Positions 44,047 to 51,524 of a DNA stretch of 64,000 nt are shown piece after piece; position 1 is the stretch's first letter; each line of letters opens with the position of its first letter. The stretch lies in assembly GCF_030013595.1 (NCBI RefSeq), contig NZ_CP122768.1, one strand, 5' to 3'. A program made the position numbers and the translations under genes. The notes below the pieces were generated by a model that saw nothing but the letters and a program-made list of their open reading frames with translations, searched no databases and was not told the origin of the DNA. Origin of the DNA: Escherichia coli (GTDB lineage Bacteria; Pseudomonadota; Gammaproteobacteria; Enterobacterales; Enterobacteriaceae).

Positions 44047-44072
44047 CGTATAGCTTAACGTGTAGCTAAAAA
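44047..44072. repeat. 26-nt direct repeat (candidate integrase arm-type site), distal copy
   Basis: CGTATAGCTTAACGTGTAGCTAAAAA differs by 1 nt from CGTATAGCTAAACGTGTAGCTAAAAA at 54028-54053. Confidence 0.6.
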
Positions 44073-44622
44073 TGTTTGCTGCAAAAGTATACAATTTTAA
44101 CCGTTATGACTCCCTGTTATCCGTTATCAAGCTGGTGGATGATCATGGATAACCCGTTATGGGAATCCCCATATCGGCATCAGGCCCATGCCATAACAAA
44201 AACCCCATATTCGTGGGTTTTCTGTGTTGTGGCTATTCTGCCGTTGCCGTGCTGGTGGATATTTCCGGTATGTGGCTCACCATATCGGCATCACGCCCAC
44301 CAGCGCGACGCATTTTTTTAATTTCGCGGGTGTAAAAATTTGACGGGGCGGGCGGTCCTATAAGCAATGGGGGGTAGGGATTTCGATCCCCCCTCCTGAA
44401 TGCAATTTTCCGTATGTGGCTGTGCGGCAATCATACTCGTCACATGTTTTTGACAATAAAAGGCCCGACCGTGAGACTCACAAACAAAAAAGTTACGGAG
44501 AAACAGGGGATCGGGCTCGGTTGCCGCTAAATCTATTCAATTAAAAGAAGATGTCAATAGGGAAAACGAAAAAAAACAATGCTGATATTGTCATAATTTG
44601 AACAAAACCACTATATGTAGTT

Positions 44623-44853
44623 TTAGTTCATGAGGTTAGTCGCTACCAGATGCGTCAATAGTTTTTTGCTATTAATAATCCCTCTTTTTCCATCGGGAGC
44701 TTTGCACTTGTCACTACCTGGTAACTCCTGGTGGCGTTCCTGTTGCAGCACAACGGAAACAGGCGCTGAACACCTGTTAATTTTGCTTGCAGGTTGTTTG
44801 ATTTCGGCAATGCTGCGGATCATCTCCAGCATATCGGCTTCGGTGATGGTCAT
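44623..44853 (-). CDS. hypothetical small protein (76 aa)
   Basis: The ORF is preceded by an AAGGTG Shine-Dalgarno 6 nt from the ATG. I recognise no family, and it lies in an otherwise ORF-poor region. Confidence 0.35.
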   Translation of the reverse strand: MTITEADMLEMIRSIAEIKQPASKINRCSAPVSVVLQQERHQELPGSDKCKAPDGKRGIINSKKLLTHLVATNLMN

Positions 44854-44884
44854 GATTTACACCTTAGGAAATCTTAGGGGCTGG

Positions 44885-45142
44885 TTGACACTTTCCGGCT
44901 TAAGACCTTAACAAATCTTAACATCGCAGGTTGACACACTTGACACTTTTTCGCGAAAAACCTTATCAAACCTTAGCATTTCTAAGCATGGCAACTTGAC
45001 ACTTTTCGCGATTTTTTCGGCTTTTTGACGTGGTAAATCTGGCGCAAAGCCAGTAACGGCGGGGTTTACAGCGAGGTTGACACTTTTTCGCGTTCAGAGT
45101 GTAAAGTGTCAACCTGGCAAGCTGCTCAACTTGACACTTTTT
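44885..45142. repeat. iteron array TTGACACTTT(TT)CGCG (at least 6 direct copies plus 1 inverted)
   Basis: Copies start at 44885, 44931, 44940, 44996, 45077 and 45131, with one inverted copy at 45103-45112. They are interspersed with CCTTA(G/A/T) repeats and lie between the Nu1-like gene and the 76-aa ORF. Confidence 0.8.
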
Positions 45143-45146
45143 GAGG

Positions 45147-45674
45147 TCATTGATGGCCTGATTTTTCCCACTCAGCCAGGGCGTTTAGTCCGGCTTCACT
45201 CCAGTTATCCAGCTCATCGGGACAATCACCTGCAACATAGCAGAGCTCACAACGCAGCATACGAATTGCCAGCCTGGCATTTTCCCGAAAATCATACTGC
45301 TCAAAGTAATATTGCCCAGCATAATCCTCAAGGCAGATAGCACCATCATCAAGAAATTGCACTTCACAGCATAGTTCCCCGGCTGCATCCTGTACACGCT
45401 GCTGTATGTCATTGTCCGTTACTGGTGCAGGGATTTTACCGTCTCTGGCCTTAACTGCTTTCCAGAACTCGCCCCACGTCATTTCCAGCGTTCTCTCTGG
45501 CCACATTTCAGAAACGGTATCTTTTCCCTGTGCTGGTGGGCTGTTCCGCTGCTCTGTCGCTTCCACATCGATTTTTTTACCGGACATGACCACTTCGCCT
45601 TTCTCGATCCAGTCGTAAACTGTCTGGCGGCTTACGCCTTTGTGTTTGGCATATTCTGCCTTGCTCATAAACAT
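45147..45674 (-). CDS. protein with a lambda Nu1 (small terminase)-like N-terminal HTH; candidate packaging-specificity factor
   Basis: 175 aa. The N-terminus SKAEYAKHKGVSRQTVYDWIEKGEV resembles lambda Nu1 NKKQLADIFGASIRTIQNWQEQGMPV. The rest is unrecognised and Cys-rich. A good Shine-Dalgarno (GAGGGGAAG) precedes the start. Confidence 0.55.
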   Translation of the reverse strand: MFMSKAEYAKHKGVSRQTVYDWIEKGEVVMSGKKIDVEATEQRNSPPAQGKDTVSEMWPERTLEMTWGEFWKAVKARDGKIPAPVTDNDIQQRVQDAAGELCCEVQFLDDGAICLEDYAGQYYFEQYDFRENARLAIRMLRCELCYVAGDCPDELDNWSEAGLNALAEWEKSGHQ

Positions 45675-45844
45675 GACACTTCCCCTCAGACTGTATTAAT
45701 GCGCCGGAAAGCGCGTGTATTTAAATCATCCCAGGAACCGTTGAGCACCAATTAGTTGCGCGAAGTAATCGGCACCAGCGTTCCGAACAATTTCCAACTT
45801 AACGTTCTGATCATTGTTTCCTGCTGCAGGGACAATCCCACGAT

Positions 45845-46498
45845 TCATAGCCAGCGCCCGGATATTTCTTCCAGTTTTTCCAGAGCTGGCTTGCAGGCCG
45901 CATCAATAACTTCACGGACCATTCCGGCGAGCTGTTCTTCTTCTGTCGGCGTTGTTACTTCCACACCTGATGGTTTCCCGCCCTTATCCCATACGCCCAA
46001 CGGTACGAGCGCAACGTGATCGATAAGAAATGGCGTACCCTCAATGAAAAAATTGTCCTCGCCCATTACATCAGGAACTTCTGCCCCACCGGACGCACCA
46101 CAAAACACAACCGACGGGCTGGTGGATACCTCCCCCCGTGCTTTCTGGATGTAATCGATGATTTCCTGCCCGTAAATCCGGCATACGCCCCACACCTCGT
46201 CACCGCGAATATACGGCAACATGACGGTGCCAATAATGCGCGACCGTTCGCCCACGTCTTCAAGGGTTTTGCTTTCGGGATGGTCGATAATGACGGGTAC
46301 TCCGGCGCAACGTTCCAGGAACTGCGGATTGAGATAAGTTTGCGGTGAACGCCAGACAAATTCTTTTTCTTCGGCGCGATAGGCCATTCCGGTTCCTGTG
46401 ATACGCAGGTTAATCAGCCACATGTTGGAAAACTGATAAGGCGACGGTAGCTGACCGTCCCGAATCTGCTTTGCCGCCTCAATTTCTGTTAAAAGCAT
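45845..46498 (-). CDS. DUF2213-like protein (phage scaffold/prohead-protease-like family)
   Basis: 217 aa. The motifs GVPVIIDHPES, IGTV and IDHVALVPLGVWDKGG follow the pattern I remember for DUF2213. This has not been verified by HMM. Confidence 0.5.
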   Translation of the reverse strand: MLLTEIEAAKQIRDGQLPSPYQFSNMWLINLRITGTGMAYRAEEKEFVWRSPQTYLNPQFLERCAGVPVIIDHPESKTLEDVGERSRIIGTVMLPYIRGDEVWGVCRIYGQEIIDYIQKARGEVSTSPSVVFCGASGGAEVPDVMGEDNFFIEGTPFLIDHVALVPLGVWDKGGKPSGVEVTTPTEEEQLAGMVREVIDAACKPALEKLEEISGRWL

Positions 46499-46562
46499 AA
46501 TGTCCCCCGGTTATAAGCAATAAGCCCCACCAAATCCGGCAGGGCTGAAATCAGCACGTTTT

Positions 46563-47147
46563 TCATGCCCCCGCGAGGCTTGCAACGTTAATTTTAACCA
46601 GGCGACGGGGAGGGATTTTGAAAGCACTAAGCCAGTTATTCGGATCCCCCTGATATTCAGTAATCCGCCGTCCGGCTTCATCCATTCTTACGGTTTTACG
46701 CAAATAGCCCGGCGTATTTTCCACAGCCCACTGAACACTGTCTTTTGCAGCCTGGTAAATCTGATCTTCCAGCACCGCCAGCGTTGCAGAATCTGAAACG
46801 GAACGAATATCCACATCACTGAATTTTTTAGCCAGCTTCTGTGCACCAATTAATGCACGCTTGCGGTAATCCATCGACTTTTCACCAGCAAACGGGGCTG
46901 GAGCGCGACGGCCCATATTGCTGTATGCGGAATCCGCTTTAGCCTGGGCTTCTGCCAGTGAGGATTCATCTTCGACTGACGCGACGATGTTTTTATTCGC
47001 GTCATCCTCGTCCGCTTTTGTGAAATCCTGTGCGGGGATCGCATTCAGAATTTCGATAATCTCCTGCGGAGTGCTGCCCTGCGACTCTGACAGAGCGTTA
47101 ACCACCTCCATCAGTTTTAATCGCAAATCTTCTTTGCTTGCTGGCAT
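46563..47147 (-). CDS. hypothetical protein (194 aa) with an acidic N-terminal half
   Basis: The ORF has a GAGAGG Shine-Dalgarno before the ATG at 47147; the ORF track begins 9 nt earlier at a GTG. I recognise no family. It lies immediately upstream of the DUF2213-like gene. Confidence 0.5.
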   Translation of the reverse strand: MPASKEDLRLKLMEVVNALSESQGSTPQEIIEILNAIPAQDFTKADEDDANKNIVASVEDESSLAEAQAKADSAYSNMGRRAPAPFAGEKSMDYRKRALIGAQKLAKKFSDVDIRSVSDSATLAVLEDQIYQAAKDSVQWAVENTPGYLRKTVRMDEAGRRITEYQGDPNNWLSAFKIPPRRLVKINVASLAGA

Positions 47148-47186
47148 TTTTACCACCTCTCTTTTTTCACCAAAAAATCACGACCA

Positions 47187-47360
47187 TCAGGCCGGACGTT
47201 CTACGGGATAAAGCGCCCGCTGCATTAAACGCCGGGCGACCTCATGAATGCTCGGAGCAATCCCCAGCGGAGAATTGCGGCGTTCCTCGTCCTGGATGCG
47301 CTGTAATGCTTCAATCTGATCACGAGCGAGTAAAACGGGTTTCACGCTGGCTTTTCTCAT
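47187..47360 (-). CDS. hypothetical small protein (57 aa)
   Basis: An AGGAG Shine-Dalgarno lies 8 nt before the ATG at 47360; alternative ATGs are at 47366 and 47384. It is the first ORF after the tandem terminators. Confidence 0.45.
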   Translation of the reverse strand: MRKASVKPVLLARDQIEALQRIQDEERRNSPLGIAPSIHEVARRLMQRALYPVERPA

Positions 47361-47486
47361 AGTCATATCTCCTGAACAAAACAATGATTATGATTGCACA
47401 AACTGAAATAACGATCTACATCATTGCAATTTATGAAACAATAACGCATGATGATCGCGTTCTTCCCATTGACTTCAATCACCTGA

Positions 47487-47525
47487 AAAACAAAGCCCGC
47501 AACACTTCTGGCTGCGGGTTTTTTA
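47487..47525. terminator. hairpin with T-runs on both strands
   Basis: A CCCGCA-N11-TGCGGG hairpin is followed by TTTTTT on the plus strand and by TTTGTTTTT on the minus strand. Confidence 0.55.
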
Positions 47526-47531
47526 CTGGCA

Positions 47532-47557
47532 CAAAAAAGCCGGGAAAAATCCCGGCC
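47532..47557 (-). terminator. rho-independent terminator after the PerC-like gene
   Basis: The minus strand reads GCCGGGA-tttt-TCCCGGC followed by TTTTTT, 5 nt after the stop codon. Confidence 0.75.
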
Positions 47558-47561
47558 TCCG

Positions 47562-47849
47562 TCACTGACTGCAATTTTTCGATCCAGGGTATTTCCTGAA
47601 TGCCTTACCATTGGGCTGATGTAATCCCATCCCGGCATGTGCCCGGCTGATGGTTTCGCGCATTTCCCCGAAATTATCCTGCCTTGCTGGTGGGCGTGCT
47701 GCCTTGCGGATACATTCCGCGCGACGTTTTGCCGCCTGTTCCCGTGCCTTGTCATCATTCGCCAGCATGATGACCTCAGCCCACCGCGCCGCCGCTCTCC
47801 GGTACAGACCACGCGCTTCCAGTGCTTCCGCTTTGCTGTCGTGAATCAT
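47562..47849 (-). CDS. PerC/Pch-like transcriptional regulator
   Basis: 95 aa. The N-terminal AEALEARGLYRRAAARWAEV matches the PerC-family signature as I recall it. Its start overlaps the upstream gene's stop by 4 nt. Confidence 0.55.
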   Translation of the reverse strand: MIHDSKAEALEARGLYRRAAARWAEVIMLANDDKAREQAAKRRAECIRKAARPPARQDNFGEMRETISRAHAGMGLHQPNGKAFRKYPGSKNCSQ

Positions 47850-48388
47850 GCGCCTGTTTTCTCCTTTGCTGCCCGGCGCTGACGTTTGCGCTTCTCATTC
47901 AGCGCCACCAGCCGCGTTTCTGCGTCCTGTTGTTCCTGTGGTGTCACCTCGCCGCACGGCTGGCCTTTCAGGTCGTAGCGTACCCCACCAGCCATTAAGG
48001 CGCGGTAATAGCGCGGACACTGCGCATAAGATGCCAGCGTCGCACGCAATGCCCCTGGACCGAATGCCAGCCCCCTGACGGCGAGATCCTGCATCAGGTC
48101 GTCGAATATCCCCACCTTAAGCGGCTTCGGTGCTTCCCGGCTGAATAATTCAGGCCACAACTCAGTGAGGCGGTTAACGCGCCTGCGGTTTTTGCGCTGG
48201 CGTTTGGTCATATGCCGCCACGGTGTCGCCCCTGTGGGCTTCTGCTGCGCTTTCTGGTTACCGGGCATCACTTTATGCGCCGATGTGGTTTTATCCTGCT
48301 CCTGCGCCGCCTGCGTCGTTTTCTGCGGCGTGCCGTAAATGCCTTTCGGTTTTCTGTTAATGGTCAGCTTAGTCATGCTTTGCCCCAT
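47846..48388 (-). CDS. FinO/ProQ-domain RNA-binding protein
   Basis: 180 aa. KPLKVGIFDDL ... LRATLASYAQCPRYYRAL..GGVRYDLKGQPCGEV aligns with E. coli ProQ RPLKIGIFQDL ... [35 protein letters not shown]. Both the N- and C-terminal tails are basic. Confidence 0.8.
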   Translation of the reverse strand: MGQSMTKLTINRKPKGIYGTPQKTTQAAQEQDKTTSAHKVMPGNQKAQQKPTGATPWRHMTKRQRKNRRRVNRLTELWPELFSREAPKPLKVGIFDDLMQDLAVRGLAFGPGALRATLASYAQCPRYYRALMAGGVRYDLKGQPCGEVTPQEQQDAETRLVALNEKRKRQRRAAKEKTGA

Positions 48389-48537
48389 CGTTTTTACTGG
48401 TTGCTACGTTGCCCAACGGCACTGACACAACATTCTGTTTTCATTTTTAACATTCCTGATTTTTTAATTCCTCACCTGCTGCACAGTGAAAATTTATGAA
48501 GTTAATAACAATATGATTTTAAATGTATTTTTAAGTA

Positions 48538-48856
48538 CTCACTTTTTAATCCTTATATATACGCAAAAGTGAGGTAAATAGTTAAGTTTTAGTTAATATC
48601 TTGCATGGTGTGTTTTTTAACCTACCTGTTATTTTTATTACCTCATTTCTATTAACTCACCATTCCTCACTTTTGTTCCTCACTTTTTATTATTCTTGTT
48701 CTGCTCCTCAGTCGTTTTCTTTATTGTTGTAATCTGTTGTTTTGCAATGTGTTTTTAACTCCTCACTTTTTGACCTATATACAGGTGAGAAAGTGAGGAG
48801 TGGCGTTGATTTTTTGTTAAATTACCCGCCATCCTCACTTTTGCTCCTCACTTTTT
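48538..48856. repeat. iteron array CCTCACTTTT(T) in AT-rich DNA: candidate island replication origin
   Basis: Direct copies lie at 48538, 48665, 48678, 48761, 48833 and 48846. Inverted copies lie at 48565-48574 and 48789-48800, and there are degenerate copies as well. The array is immediately downstream of the helicase gene. Confidence 0.75.
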
Positions 48857-50270
48857 ACAGTGGGCGCACATAATCACCGTCAATAGCGATTACGCCGTCG
48901 CTTTCCAGCTTGTACAGCCAGCGCCGGAAGTGTTTCATCTCATACCCCAGCTTTTTCATATCATCGCGGAGAAGGGCGATAGTGCACGCCTCCCCGTGTG
49001 CTGTTCGCGTTCTGATGCACTGCCATAGCGCAGCGTGATTTTCCGTCTTGTTCCCGGCCTCCTCGATGCGTTCCAGTTCAACAGGTGGGCGCGGCTTATC
49101 CACAACCACCAGCGACGTGATTAACTCCCCGTCAGTGTCGGTAAAAAGCTCCACCACGCGTAAATCATATGCAGCCTCTTTCAGTTCCTCCGCGTCCTTC
49201 ATTTTGGTGCAGGAGATAACCAGGGCTTCACTGTCCGCACCTTCACGGCGAATACGGTATTCAGCGTCCAGAGATGCACGAAATGCACTGGAACCACGCG
49301 CCCCTTTTGTTTCATCCTTGCCGGAATGGTGAACCACCAGTACCGTGGCCCCTGTGCGTCGTTTCAGTTCGTCACATCCACGGATAAACGCCCCCATATC
49401 CCGCGCGTCATTTTCATCATTACCGCCAAAGCAACGCGCCAGCGTATCCAGAATAATCATGCGTACCGGTTTACCCGTTTCCCGTTCAACCTGACGGGAA
49501 GCGATGACCATTTCATCAACATCAAGCGGGACCGCCGGAAAAATCGGGCGGTTTACCAGGTACAGATTTTTCACCCGTTCATCATTAACGATTTCCCATG
49601 CTTTGATACGACGAGGAACACCGATCCCGCCCTCACCAACGACATACATAACCGCACCATGTACAACCCTGCGACCTCCCCAGTGGCGACCAGTGGCAAC
49701 ATGACACGCCCAGGAACACGCGAGGAACGATTTATAGGAACCGCTCGCGCCGTATGTGCTGCACAACGAATTAGCCGGAATCACGCCCTTAACGACATAA
49801 TCAAGCTGTGTGTCGTATCCTGCAGATCCAATACTCATTGGTAGCGTGGTTTTTCGCTGGCTGTATTGCTCGTCAGTAAGTATTTCCCCGCGCTCTGCCT
49901 GTTCGCGGATCCGTTGCAGGTAGTCGTGCCAGTTCTCCAGCTTCTGGCTGTGCATTCCCTCAGGGTAATAATTCGCATCCCGTACACCTGCCGCCGCCAG
50001 TTTTTGCCCGATGGCATTAATATTTGACGGCTTGATGTGGCCTGCCTTGTACAGCCGGACACAATAGCGACCATCGTCGATAATTTTCAGGTCTGCCAGT
50101 TCGTCAAGCTGGCTGTCTCCCAGCCATACAGGCGGAACATTGTCGCCAGCAAGTCGCCCGTCCTGTTCCTGCCATTGTTTCGCGTGCGCCCAGGCATCAC
50201 TACCCGCAAAAATAATGACTTCGGTCATTTTGTCGTGTGGCTGTTTTTTTAAGTTCGGTGCCAGTTTCAT
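48855..50270 (-). CDS. RepA/AAA_25-type replicative helicase-like initiator
   Basis: 471 aa with a RecA-fold core: Walker A-like GASGSYKS, Walker B MIILD and an HHSGK motif. The C-terminus is wHTH-like. It is translationally coupled to the upstream ORF. Confidence 0.7.
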   Translation of the reverse strand: MKLAPNLKKQPHDKMTEVIIFAGSDAWAHAKQWQEQDGRLAGDNVPPVWLGDSQLDELADLKIIDDGRYCVRLYKAGHIKPSNINAIGQKLAAAGVRDANYYPEGMHSQKLENWHDYLQRIREQAERGEILTDEQYSQRKTTLPMSIGSAGYDTQLDYVVKGVIPANSLCSTYGASGSYKSFLACSWACHVATGRHWGGRRVVHGAVMYVVGEGGIGVPRRIKAWEIVNDERVKNLYLVNRPIFPAVPLDVDEMVIASRQVERETGKPVRMIILDTLARCFGGNDENDARDMGAFIRGCDELKRRTGATVLVVHHSGKDETKGARGSSAFRASLDAEYRIRREGADSEALVISCTKMKDAEELKEAAYDLRVVELFTDTDGELITSLVVVDKPRPPVELERIEEAGNKTENHAALWQCIRTRTAHGEACTIALLRDDMKKLGYEMKHFRRWLYKLESDGVIAIDGDYVRPL

Positions 50271-50566
50271 TTTGTGCCCCTGAATGCGTTAATCATGTTT
50301 TTCATTTTCTGAATATTTGCCCGTGCCTTTGCGTTGCTGGTGGGCTGTTTGCGTGGTGTGGCCTGTATCAGTGAAAAATCACGCCGGAACTGATAAACAG
50401 GCATCACGCAGTCGTAGCTGTACCCATCACGGCGGTAAGTAACGCACCGTCCGGCAATACTTTTAATCGTTACCGTGCCGCCGTAGTTATCCCGGAAAAT
50501 ATCGCCGGGGCGGATTTCAGGCCGAGGGAGACCACTGGCAGTAAAGCCAGAATTTTTCTTTTTCAT
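50267..50566 (-). CDS. hypothetical protein (99 aa)
   Basis: The ORF overlaps the rep start by 4 nt. I could not confidently recognise a family. Confidence 0.5.
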   Translation of the reverse strand: MKKKNSGFTASGLPRPEIRPGDIFRDNYGGTVTIKSIAGRCVTYRRDGYSYDCVMPVYQFRRDFSLIQATPRKQPTSNAKARANIQKMKNMINAFRGTK

Positions 50567-50570
50567 GGTT

Positions 50571-50771
50571 TTATTTTCCTGTCAGCAGTTCCGGTTTTAT
50601 TTCCGCACGAATACAGAGTTCAGAAAAAAATTCAGGAGAACCAACAATCTCATTACTTTTCAGTCGGCATTGTGATTTCACTTTCCCTTTATCCAGGTAA
50701 ACCAGTATGCGTCCGGTGAAATCATCTGGCACACTCAGGGTAATTGTCATTGTTGCTTGCTGATTATCCAT
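50571..50771 (-). CDS. hypothetical protein carrying one copy of the FTG(R/Q) module (66 aa)
   Basis: It shares the pattern FTGRILVYLDKGKV...VGSPEFFSEL with both halves of the upstream 121-aa protein. Confidence 0.5.
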   Translation of the reverse strand: MDNQQATMTITLSVPDDFTGRILVYLDKGKVKSQCRLKSNEIVGSPEFFSELCIRAEIKPELLTGK

Positions 50772-51129
50772 GATTCACCCCCTGAATAACCTGATAACCG
50801 CAACTGGTCAGCAATTCGATAAATTCCGGCAGTGTTCCGAAACAGCAATCATCTCGCAGCCGTTCTCGGGATACTTCAACGCCGTTTTCGTAGTGACTCA
50901 CCATGCGTCCGGTAAAATGCAGATCATCATCGTGATGGCTCGTTAACGGCTTAATCAGTCGCGCACGTTCTGCCAGCTCCAGCAATGCTTCAACGCTTCC
51001 GGCAATTGCACCATCCGGCAGGTGATAATTACTTGCCACGCGTCCATTCTCCACGTTAACCAGTAGCTGCCCGGTGAATTTCTCATCAAACTGAATGCTG
51101 TTAAGGTCAGAAATTGACAGGTTAATCAT
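50764..51129 (-). CDS. hypothetical protein carrying two tandem copies of the FTG(R/Q) module (121 aa)
   Basis: Internal duplication: FTGQLLVNVENGRV...AGSVEALLEL and FTGRMVSHYENGVEV...FGTLPEFIEL. It overlaps both neighbouring genes by 8 nt. Confidence 0.55.
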   Translation of the reverse strand: MINLSISDLNSIQFDEKFTGQLLVNVENGRVASNYHLPDGAIAGSVEALLELAERARLIKPLTSHHDDDLHFTGRMVSHYENGVEVSRERLRDDCCFGTLPEFIELLTSCGYQVIQGVNHG

Positions 51130-51325
51130 GGCGTACCTCCTGGCGAATACGGGCAGCGAATACCATCACGCAGCCATCAGGAGATTGCTGACGCGCTTCC
51201 TGTTCGCTGGTGGCCTCAATGGTAATCACGCGCGGTTGTGCCGTGCTCAGGGCGATAAAACGCCAGATGTATTTATTCAGGTTGTGCGAGTCCCGCCCTT
51301 GCGGGTGTGTGGTATGATTTCTCAT
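51122..51325 (-). CDS. Icd-like small protein (67 aa)
   Basis: This is the 3' third of the 286-aa ORF-track entry, starting at MRNHTTHPQGRDSH. The segment YIWRFIALS...IEATSEQEARQQSP.GCVMVFAARIRQE resembles proteins annotated as host cell division inhibitor Icd-like in satellite islands. That match is from memory only. Confidence 0.5.
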   Translation of the reverse strand: MRNHTTHPQGRDSHNLNKYIWRFIALSTAQPRVITIEATSEQEARQQSPDGCVMVFAARIRQEVRHD

Positions 51326-51422
51326 AGCTACCTCGATACTCTTTCTATCGTTGGTGGTTAGAAGCCCCGTTACTGCTCCAACAGTGCGGGGTTTCGTCGT
51401 TTCTGTGCCTTGCATTAACAAG

Positions 51423-51504
51423 GTGTAAGACACAATGTAAAATACAAGTGTCTTACACGTCAAGCCTTCAAAATAATTTTTTTTCGTGTATATTGTCTTA
51501 CACC
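51423..51504. promoter_or_regulatory. operator-like repeats in the divergent control region
   Basis: GTGTAAGACAC (51423-51433) and its exact inverted copy GTGTCTTACAC (51448-51458) are joined by a third copy, GTCTTACACC (51495-51504). They lie between the Icd-like operon and the plus-strand RHH-like gene. Confidence 0.6.
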
Positions 51505-51524
51505 AACAACATAAGGAGTTAGAC

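Follow-up and report, generated by a model that had tools for sequence, protein, structure and literature searches.

Two neighbouring genes in a phage satellite of Escherichia coli encode proteins that, judged by their sequences, are the separated and re-ordered halves of one helper-type protease-scaffold protein. The first half is a 217-aa protein carrying the protease fold, and the second is a 194-aa protein carrying the C-terminal domain. The pair is a good candidate for a new way of tampering with the assembly of helper capsids. In it, a widespread and poorly understood phage head protein appears as a natural dissection into a protease module and a C-terminal module. The window, meaning the whole 64-kb stretch of DNA that was analysed, is a part of the E. 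coli chromosome in which ccmH, narP, and yejO lie upstream and a tRNA-Pro gene lies downstream. Coordinates of the features are collected in Table 1.

Table 1. Features of the satellite and its surroundings, in positions of the window.
Feature	Position	Strand	Basis or remark
PICI-type satellite, 10.0 kb	44047-54053	minus	26-nt direct repeats, domain matches
Direct repeat, 26 nt, first copy	44047-44072
TTGACAC/GTGTCAA motifs, at least seven	44890-45145	none	repeat families D2 and D5 and the sequence itself
Small-terminase-like protein, 175 aa	45147-45674	minus	phrog_57 (terminase small subunit), E = 5.4e-7
Tail lytic-transglycosylase gene, 3'-end remnant	45726-45853	minus	encodes ...NRGIVPAAGNNDQNVKLEIVRNAGADYFAQLIGAQRFLG (stop)
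DUF2213 protein, 217 aa	45845-46498	minus	open reading frame list
Partner protein, 194 aa	46563-47147	minus	start by homologues
57-aa protein, first cassette gene	47187-47360	minus	tblastn, RefSeq 'hypothetical protein'
Iterons, five copies	48530-48856
Direct repeat, 26 nt, second copy	54028-54053
tRNA-Pro	54172-54248

The two proteins and their phage counterpart

Both open reading frames lie where the first-pass annotation had put them, on the minus strand. Read from its first possible start codon, the frame of the partner spans 46563-47156. Its start is placed instead at the ATG at 47147, the end coordinate also given in that annotation, because nearly all of about 100 database homologues are 194 residues long and begin with MPASKEDL.

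The relationship between the two proteins becomes visible in comparison with a 440-aa 'DUF2213 domain-containing protein' from a prophage of E. coli W, a reference reached through a distant DNA search. In BLASTP, the 217-aa protein aligns with residues 1-220 of this protein (54% identity, E = 2e-83). The partner matches it from residue 305 to residue 433, over its own residues 63-191 (64% identity, E = 6e-57). A search of PHROGs, proposed earlier as a check, has been run and places both proteins on a single profile of 545 columns, phrog_6216, with the 217-aa protein at positions 115-315 and the partner at positions 405-544. The same two-piece match pattern is found by tblastn in eight loci. 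In the satellite the gene order is swapped, with the gene for the C-terminal piece standing first, and the 82-residue linker that joins the two regions of the phage protein is absent from the pair. This linker is rich in Ala, Glu, and Lys, being composed of 26 Ala, 23 Glu, 14 Lys, 7 Asp, 5 Arg, and seven other residues. An interdomain stretch of 126-291 residues, about 41% of them charged, is present in 36 of 36 full-length homologues.

The usual form of the PF09979 (DUF2213) family is a single protein of about 440-480 residues, with a protease domain, a charged linker, and a C-terminal part, whose gene lies between a portal or MuF-like gene and the major capsid gene. Such a plan is seen in the E. 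coli W prophage, with the order small terminase, large terminase, portal, head-morphogenesis protein, 440-aa DUF2213 protein, 205-aa protein, and major head protein. A position between the portal and major capsid genes, which the first-pass annotation had given as typical of the family, is likewise found in Pseudomonas phage PB1. The pair in the window departs from the usual form in being split, re-ordered, and linker-less, with no capsid or portal gene nearby.

The assignment of the 217-aa protein to DUF2213, made at first from motifs, is borne out by the HMM search, in which PF09979 matches residues 39-168 (E = 2.2e-6) and scores 28.2 bits, where the curated gathering cut-off is 22. In current Pfam labels this family carries the name Pa193_gp24, and E. 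coli homologues of the protein are named 'DUF2213 domain-containing protein' in RefSeq. The AlphaFold model, with a mean pLDDT of 85, predicts that the 217-aa protein is a stand-alone prohead-protease-fold domain with one following helix. By hhalign this C-terminal helix matches the helix that follows the protease domain in the phage protein (E = 1.5e-15). The protein belongs to the fold class of T4 gp21 and herpesvirus assemblin, and its fold matches are proteases only; the annotation of phrog_530 and phrog_2229, and likewise of PB1 gp22, is 'head maturation protease'. The earlier description of the family as scaffold- or prohead-protease-like is thus apt, in that the phage protein from which the pair descends serves in head assembly and has a prohead-protease fold.

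Conserved residues point in the same direction. When 34 sequences are aligned, 11 of them from satellites, H73, S127, and D160 do not vary at all and H161 hardly varies. The motifs quoted for the family in the first-pass annotation contain H73 and D160/H161. The spacing of H73, S127, and H161 resembles that of the His63/Ser132/His157 triad of HCMV, and the conserved residues fit a candidate Ser/His/His centre like that of assemblin.

At its 3' end, the window's copy of the 217-aa gene has lost the last 6-10 codons to a deletion. The same deletion took out a 205-aa gene and most of a tail lytic-transglycosylase gene, which are present in sibling islands. What remains of the transglycosylase gene encodes a product ending in NRGIVPAAGNNDQNVKLEIVRNAGADYFAQLIGAQRFLG, identical to the C-terminus of a 679-aa protein in one sibling island (L003).

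The 194-aa partner had been listed as unrecognised. It is in fact related to the same phage protein family as the 217-aa protein, since its residues 63-191 make up the C-terminal domain that is conserved in phage DUF2213 protease-scaffolds. In the AlphaFold model this region is a confident helical domain with a beta hairpin, and pLDDT is about 90 at residues 60-140. Residues 1-62 form a satellite-specific acidic stretch, modelled as two helices followed by a disordered linker, with pLDDT below 50 at residues 40-58. The description of the partner as acidic holds for the protein overall, though mildly (pI 5.2), and for residues 1-62 (pI 4.05), but not for the conserved C-terminal domain, which is basic (pI 9.7). 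The first reading overlooked the main structural point of the locus: each protein is one end of a single helper protein. An origin of the partner's N-terminus by tandem duplication was considered and rejected, with hhalign giving E = 0.62 for its comparison with the helix after the phage protease domain.

The C-terminal domain is widespread. Its profile matches 1757 cluster representatives; of the 150 best hits, nearly all have the domain at their C-terminus or close to it. Among 100 sampled family members, a NUDIX domain stands at the N-terminus of 30, and a DUF2213 domain can be detected in at least 25. NCBI and UniRef name the 194-aa protein 'NUDIX hydrolase', and this name, together with the true N-terminal NUDIX domain in about 30% of the sample, would allow the pair to be read as metabolic. 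The sequence refutes such a reading, to which we give next to no credence: neither Pfam nor NCBIfam finds a NUDIX domain (PF00293) in the 194-aa protein, which corresponds to the far C-terminal part of the fusions. The name is a propagated error, inherited from NUDIX-DUF2213 fusions by a protein that has no such domain. On the phage linker, NCBIfam gives spurious TolA-like matches only. The misleading database names 'NUDIX hydrolase', 'TolA', and 'glycosyl transferase' are corrected by these comparisons.

Among characterized phage proteins, Pa193 gp24 and PB1 gp22 are of the parent type, with an N-terminal maturation protease and a C-terminal part that stays with the capsid. Lambda gpC/Nu3 and P2 gpO are protease-scaffold fusion proteins of the same kind. 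The satellite version differs from the phage fusions in consisting of two polypeptides without a linker, encoded by an element without a capsid gene. Pa193 gp24 is a putative scaffolding protein according to its authors, who observed a fragment of it, residues 286-326, bound on the inside of the capsid at its five-fold vertices (PMC11456595). Mapping this capsid-binding hairpin onto the C-terminal domain of the 194-aa protein fails, because PB1 gp22, standing in for Pa193 gp24, has no detectable similarity to the C-domain profile (E = 0.29); its match to the N-domain profile is marginal (E = 0.032). Searches of PDB sequences with the 194-aa and 440-aa proteins give no meaningful match.

The island and its late cassette

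The island has the structure of a Gram-negative PICI, and the satellite context proposed in the first-pass annotation is correct. The structural criteria for such elements are a length of about 10-20 kb, att repeats, an integrase with AlpA, and a replication protein with an adjacent iteron origin, along with genes that all run in one direction and the absence of lysis genes and of a complete virion gene set. The island is inserted between yejO and the adjoining tRNA-Pro gene, and its 26-nt direct repeats are 9981 nt apart. Domain matches on the minus strand identify an integrase and AlpA. Further genes are an Icd-like region, a DUF4222 protein, a RepA-type helicase (AAA_25), a ProQ/FinO protein, a PerC protein, and the late cassette. 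Five copies of the iteron TCCTCACTTTTT are found directly 3' of the helicase gene, and the replication origins of PICIs are found just 3' of this gene (PMC6092414).

The island holds no capsid gene, as had been claimed. Its open reading frames have no capsid or portal match in Pfam or PHROGs, and helper-type capsid, portal, and large-terminase proteins have no tblastn match anywhere in the window. The placement of an HE-PICI, inside a helper late gene and in the same orientation, is not that of this island. An Rfam scan of the island finds nothing besides tRNA, and promoter and terminator scans perform no better than on shuffled sequence. For the pair itself, PADLOC matches no defence system and NCBIfam matches neither protein.

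The late cassette is composed, in order, of the 57-aa gene, the C-domain gene, the protease gene, and the small-terminase-like gene. The 57-aa protein has no Pfam or PHROGs match, and by tblastn its gene is directly upstream of the pair in eight of eight related loci from five genera, with 67-100% identity. The pair thus sits immediately upstream of the small-terminase-like gene and downstream of the replication genes, and interference and packaging genes of PICIs are usually located downstream of the replication genes (PMC6739421).

The 175-aa small-terminase-like protein has an N-terminal helix-turn-helix of the small-terminase or excisionase kind, with a match to Pfam HTH_17 (E = 4.6e-4) that is below the Pfam cut-off. 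In relatives of the island in Pantoea, Klebsiella, and Citrobacter, a Sf6_terminase-like gene occupies the same position. The protein resembles Rpp proteins in its position in the island and in its N-terminal helix-turn-helix, and it is a candidate packaging-redirection protein. Among all PDB chain sequences, phmmer finds no match to it at E below 0.1; RppC was presumably among the chains searched, because its crystal structure is reported (PMC6739421). Just downstream of the 175-aa gene, the array of TTGACAC motifs is a candidate packaging-recognition site.

Conservation of the cassette and probable helpers

The order of the cassette is the same in PICIs of E. coli, Pantoea agglomerans, Klebsiella aerogenes, Enterobacter mori, and Citrobacter braakii, and both open reading frames of the pair are intact in the five genera, at 56-98% identity. 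Comparison of the E. coli copies gives dN/dS values of 0.10-0.14 (protease gene) and 0.20-0.33 (C-domain gene). The cassette is under purifying selection. Satellite copies of the protease domain are 62% identical to one another across genera versus 55-57% to the phage copies, and for the C-terminal domain the corresponding values are 65-75% versus 53-62%. Phage copies likewise cluster together for both domains. The split is therefore old and no recent accident, since satellite copies group with satellite copies and phage copies with phage copies. All invariant residues of both domains are retained in the satellite copies.

These observations bear on whether the pair does anything at all. The late zones of PICIs change readily and accumulate late genes of helpers (PMC10111431), and with a deletion scar lying beside the pair in the window's island, the two genes might be taken for an inert remnant of captured helper late genes. 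A remnant would hardly have kept intact frames in five genera, dN/dS values of 0.1-0.3, the invariant residues, the gene order, and the neighbouring 57-aa gene, which makes the absence of function very improbable.

The likely helpers, from the distribution of related sequences, are Rac-type prophages with the full-length gene, such as the E. coli W prophage and Rac-SA53. Of 5426 complete E. coli genomes, just 86 have the full-length gene, and it is carried also by phage Rac-SA53 and by related phages of Klebsiella, Yersinia, and Pantoea. At least four of the roughly 16 pair-bearing strains listed have the full-length gene as well (cq9, UMNF18, A17, and STEC005), a rough count that ignores kinship among strains. 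In cq9, a Rac-site prophage with the full-length gene lies about 7 kb from the island. Sibling E. coli islands hold homologues of two tail genes of the same phage type, with 83% and 50% identity. The cassette is a concrete, testable candidate for capsid tampering, with a named helper family and strains that carry both partners.

A more intimate association is seen in two relatives, the PICIs of Pantoea (L004) and Citrobacter (L008), which are inserted at codon 332 of a prophage large-terminase gene. The open reading frame right after each island corresponds to terminase residues 332-442 with 80-86% identity, and the portal gene, the gene for a 438/440-aa DUF2213 protein, and the capsid gene follow directly. 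Both match the helper-embedded PICI arrangement of Mageeney et al. (PMC10111431). The same authors proposed that captured late genes serve as back-up copies for satellites embedded in late genes (PMC10111431), and the two insertions interrupt the large-terminase gene upstream of the head genes. By extension, the pair could supplement the helper by providing protease and scaffold in trans when the helper late genes are delayed or reduced. We consider such a supply improbable. The gene interrupted is that of the terminase and not of the DUF2213 protein, and the satellite version is incomplete, being split and without the linker. Furthermore, the satellite copies are old lineages of their own, unlike the co-resident helper: the Pantoea satellite is 57% identical to its own helper in the protease domain and 61% in the C-terminal domain.

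Possible action on helper head assembly

On balance, we lean towards the view that the pair is a satellite-adapted, two-piece derivative of the helper protease-scaffold that acts on helper head assembly. During the late phase of the helper, the 194-aa protein would join the assembly of the helper's 342-aa major capsid protein through its conserved C-terminal domain. It would serve there as an alternative scaffold that is short and lacks the protease, or else compete with the helper's own protein. An untethered maturation protease would be supplied by the 217-aa protein. Procapsids might be remodelled as a result, most plausibly to a smaller size, and/or the helper might yield less, while the small-terminase-like protein would steer packaging to the satellite. 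Whether such an action on head assembly extends to a true redirection of capsid size is a more tentative matter, to which we give about the same weight as to interference without small capsids. Redirection or interference like that of CpmAB or Sid, as proposed in the first-pass annotation, is something we infer from the family and its context.

Helper-derived or helper-mimicking satellite proteins that remodel heads are already known, among them CpmB, Ccm, Sid, and TcaP. The pair is most readily set beside CpmA/CpmB of SaPI1, where two satellite genes likewise form a module of the packaging or late operon and adjoin a small-terminase gene. An alternative internal scaffold that competes with the helper scaffold for capsid protein is the reported role of CpmB (Dearborn et al. 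2017, eLife), and by analogy the pair may act in the same manner. CpmA and CpmB have, however, no sequence or fold relationship to the pair. Unlike them, the pair clearly comes from the helper's own protein, has a protease domain among its parts, and is split and re-ordered.

Captured helper late genes are common in the late zones of PICIs (PMC10111431). Ccm of SaPIbov5, c1499/c1500 of EcCICFT073, and the PICI 'Late zone' genes go back, like the pair, to head genes of the helper and have been retained in the late zone. Ccm is a capsid-protein homologue that redirects capsid size (PMC8569155). Ccm and c1499/c1500 differ from the pair in being capsid or decoration homologues; none is a protease-scaffold, and none is split and re-ordered. 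P4 Sid and the PLE protein TcaP are similar to the proposed role of the pair as satellite proteins that act on the helper capsid protein. Sid and TcaP turn this protein into small capsids (PMC10945586, PMC6092414). Both of these act outside the shell and are unrelated to the pair in sequence, whereas the parent of the pair would work inside the head, by analogy with Pa193 gp24. Pfam, PHROGs, and PDB sequences give no indication of homology between the pair and CpmA/B, Ccm, Sid/Psu, TcaP, or Rcm. A full-text search of the literature returns no description of a split, re-ordered, linker-less protease-scaffold cassette, and none that gives DUF2213 proteins any role in satellites, in line with what had been supposed at the outset.

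Size redirection has to be weighed against what is seen in EcCICFT073. Interference of this PICI with lambda is intact after deletion of either its captured capsid homologue or its head-decoration homologue, and its DNA goes into heads of full size (PMC6092414). Capture of a late gene therefore does not imply that capsid size is redirected. The Sf6-like small-terminase genes of related PICIs suggest headful packaging. If packaging is by the headful, concatemers of a 10-kb satellite could fill full-size heads, and small capsids would then not be required. The codons missing from the end of the window's own 217-aa gene, and the failure to place the Pa193 hairpin on the C-terminal domain, also call for caution.

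The pair may accordingly do nothing but interfere, a reading that we regard as possible though doubtful. The 194-aa protein would block the sites on the capsid protein that the helper's protease-scaffold normally uses, and the free protease would miscleave head proteins, too early, too late, or in the wrong location; no satellite-sized capsid would be made, helper yield would drop, and the satellite would be packaged as concatemers in the remaining full-size heads. EcCICFT073 offers a precedent, as it interferes through another protein, RppA, with full-size capsids (PMC6092414, PMC6739421), and the small-terminase-like genes of the cassette suggest packaging redirection. The conservation of the C-terminal domain and of the candidate catalytic residues is also what a purely interfering pair would show. 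A strong block of assembly, however, would harm the satellite too, as it needs working heads. Moreover, a protease that appears active from its residues, together with a satellite-specific N-terminal module under selection, fits a constructive role at least equally well.

In its most specific form, the preferred action on head assembly would make the cassette a hitherto undescribed capsid-size redirection system of Gram-negative PICIs. The pair would be a non-covalent, two-piece mimic of the helper protease-scaffold without its long, charged, single-helix linker. Assembly on so short a scaffold would yield small heads, which the free protease would then mature. We hold this version to be speculative and rather unlikely. 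To our knowledge, no gene has been shown to redirect capsid size in any Gram-negative PICI. PmCI172 does make small capsids, and its authors state that the genes responsible are unidentified (PMC6092414). Were this version true, the charged linker of DUF2213-type protease-scaffolds would be a molecular ruler for head size.

Deletion scar beside the 217-aa gene

The island in the window still encodes, directly past the stop codon of the 217-aa DUF2213 protease-domain gene, ~40 C-terminal residues of a lytic-transglycosylase tail protein, and it is therefore a deletion derivative. This tail protein, 679 aa long, is present in the sibling island of E. coli strain ETEC4077 (L003). The deletion removed the final 6-10 codons of the DUF2213 gene, the bulk of the transglycosylase gene, and a 205-aa gene from the window's island. 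Two helper tail genes also have homologues in some of these satellites, which are 83% and 50% identical to their counterparts in the E. coli W prophage.

Coordinates of features in the window and in related loci
Feature	Location	Strand	Description
Lytic-transglycosylase gene 3' remnant	window 45726-45853	-	matches end of sibling-island protein; corresponding sibling region L003 6248-8969
26-nt direct repeat	window 44047-44072 and 54028-54053		25/26 identical, copies 9981 nt apart
TTGACAC/GTGTCAA, at least 7 copies	window 44890-45145	both orientations	just downstream of 175-aa small-terminase-like gene
G+C-rich hairpin, 10 bp	window 46523-46546	-	in 64-nt gap between 194-aa stop codon and 217-aa ribosome-binding site
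57-aa ORF	window 47187-47360	-	without family match
Five TCCTCACTTTTT-type iterons	window 48530-48856		spacing 83-141 nt; directly 3' of RepA-type helicase gene
Insertion point in relatives	L004 12045-12449; L008 13040-13372		large-terminase gene of prophage, codon 332
E. coli cq9 locus	L009, NZ_CP031546.1, 2326000-2375900		island and Rac-site prophage
NUDIX-DUF2213 fusions	alignment A1 of homologues: P0036, P0037, P0039, P0044-P0046, P0048-P0050, P0053		also phages PdC23, vB_Kpn_Chronis

Likely island ends and origin, and the pair's surroundings

The 26-nt direct repeat likely constitutes the attachment sites of the island. Its right-hand copy stops ~120 nt from tRNA-Pro(ggg) (54172-54248), outside the tRNA gene. 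The iteron stretch is the likely replication origin. Copies of TTGACAC/GTGTCAA are frequently embedded in CGCGAAAAAGTGTCAA, and this array may serve as a packaging-recognition site.

Directly upstream of the pair formed by the 194-aa and 217-aa genes, the 57-aa ORF is found in all eight related loci, which span five genera, at 67-100% identity, and it seems to be a member of the cassette. The hairpin between the two genes of the pair might set the ratio of the 194-aa versus 217-aa products; the terminator scan overall performed no better than shuffled sequence.

Islands inside or near helper-type prophages

Relatives of the island in Pantoea agglomerans (L004) and Citrobacter braakii (L008) share an identical insertion point within a prophage's large-terminase gene. 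Mageeney et al. described helper-embedded satellites integrated in nine late genes, which are named after their phage lambda counterparts (PMC10111431). In E. coli cq9, only ~7 kb separates the ttcA (Rac) attachment site from an island whose pair shares 99.8% identity with that of the window. The prophage at this site carries intR, xisR, recET, and a complete head module, in which the 440-aa gene encodes the full-length DUF2213 protease-scaffold. Other genes of this prophage code for a scabin-related ADP-ribosyltransferase and the binding subunit of an AB5 toxin.

NUDIX fusions and database names

A genuine NUDIX hydrolase domain precedes, and is fused to, the DUF2213 protease domain in many phage and metagenome homologues; among sampled family members the figure is 30 of 100. 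The 194-aa protein owes its erroneous "NUDIX hydrolase" name to these fusions, which suggest an enzyme that would be brought into the head via the protease-scaffold. Other names look wrong as well. RefSeq calls the prophage portal protein "anti-CBASS protein Acb1 family protein" (L002 14055-15491; L009 42777-44213), but the protein has matches to both Pfam Phage_portal_3 and phrog_146 (portal, E = 3e-74). In phage records, the names given to the 440-aa protein vary between TolA, NUDIX hydrolase, and glycosyl transferase.
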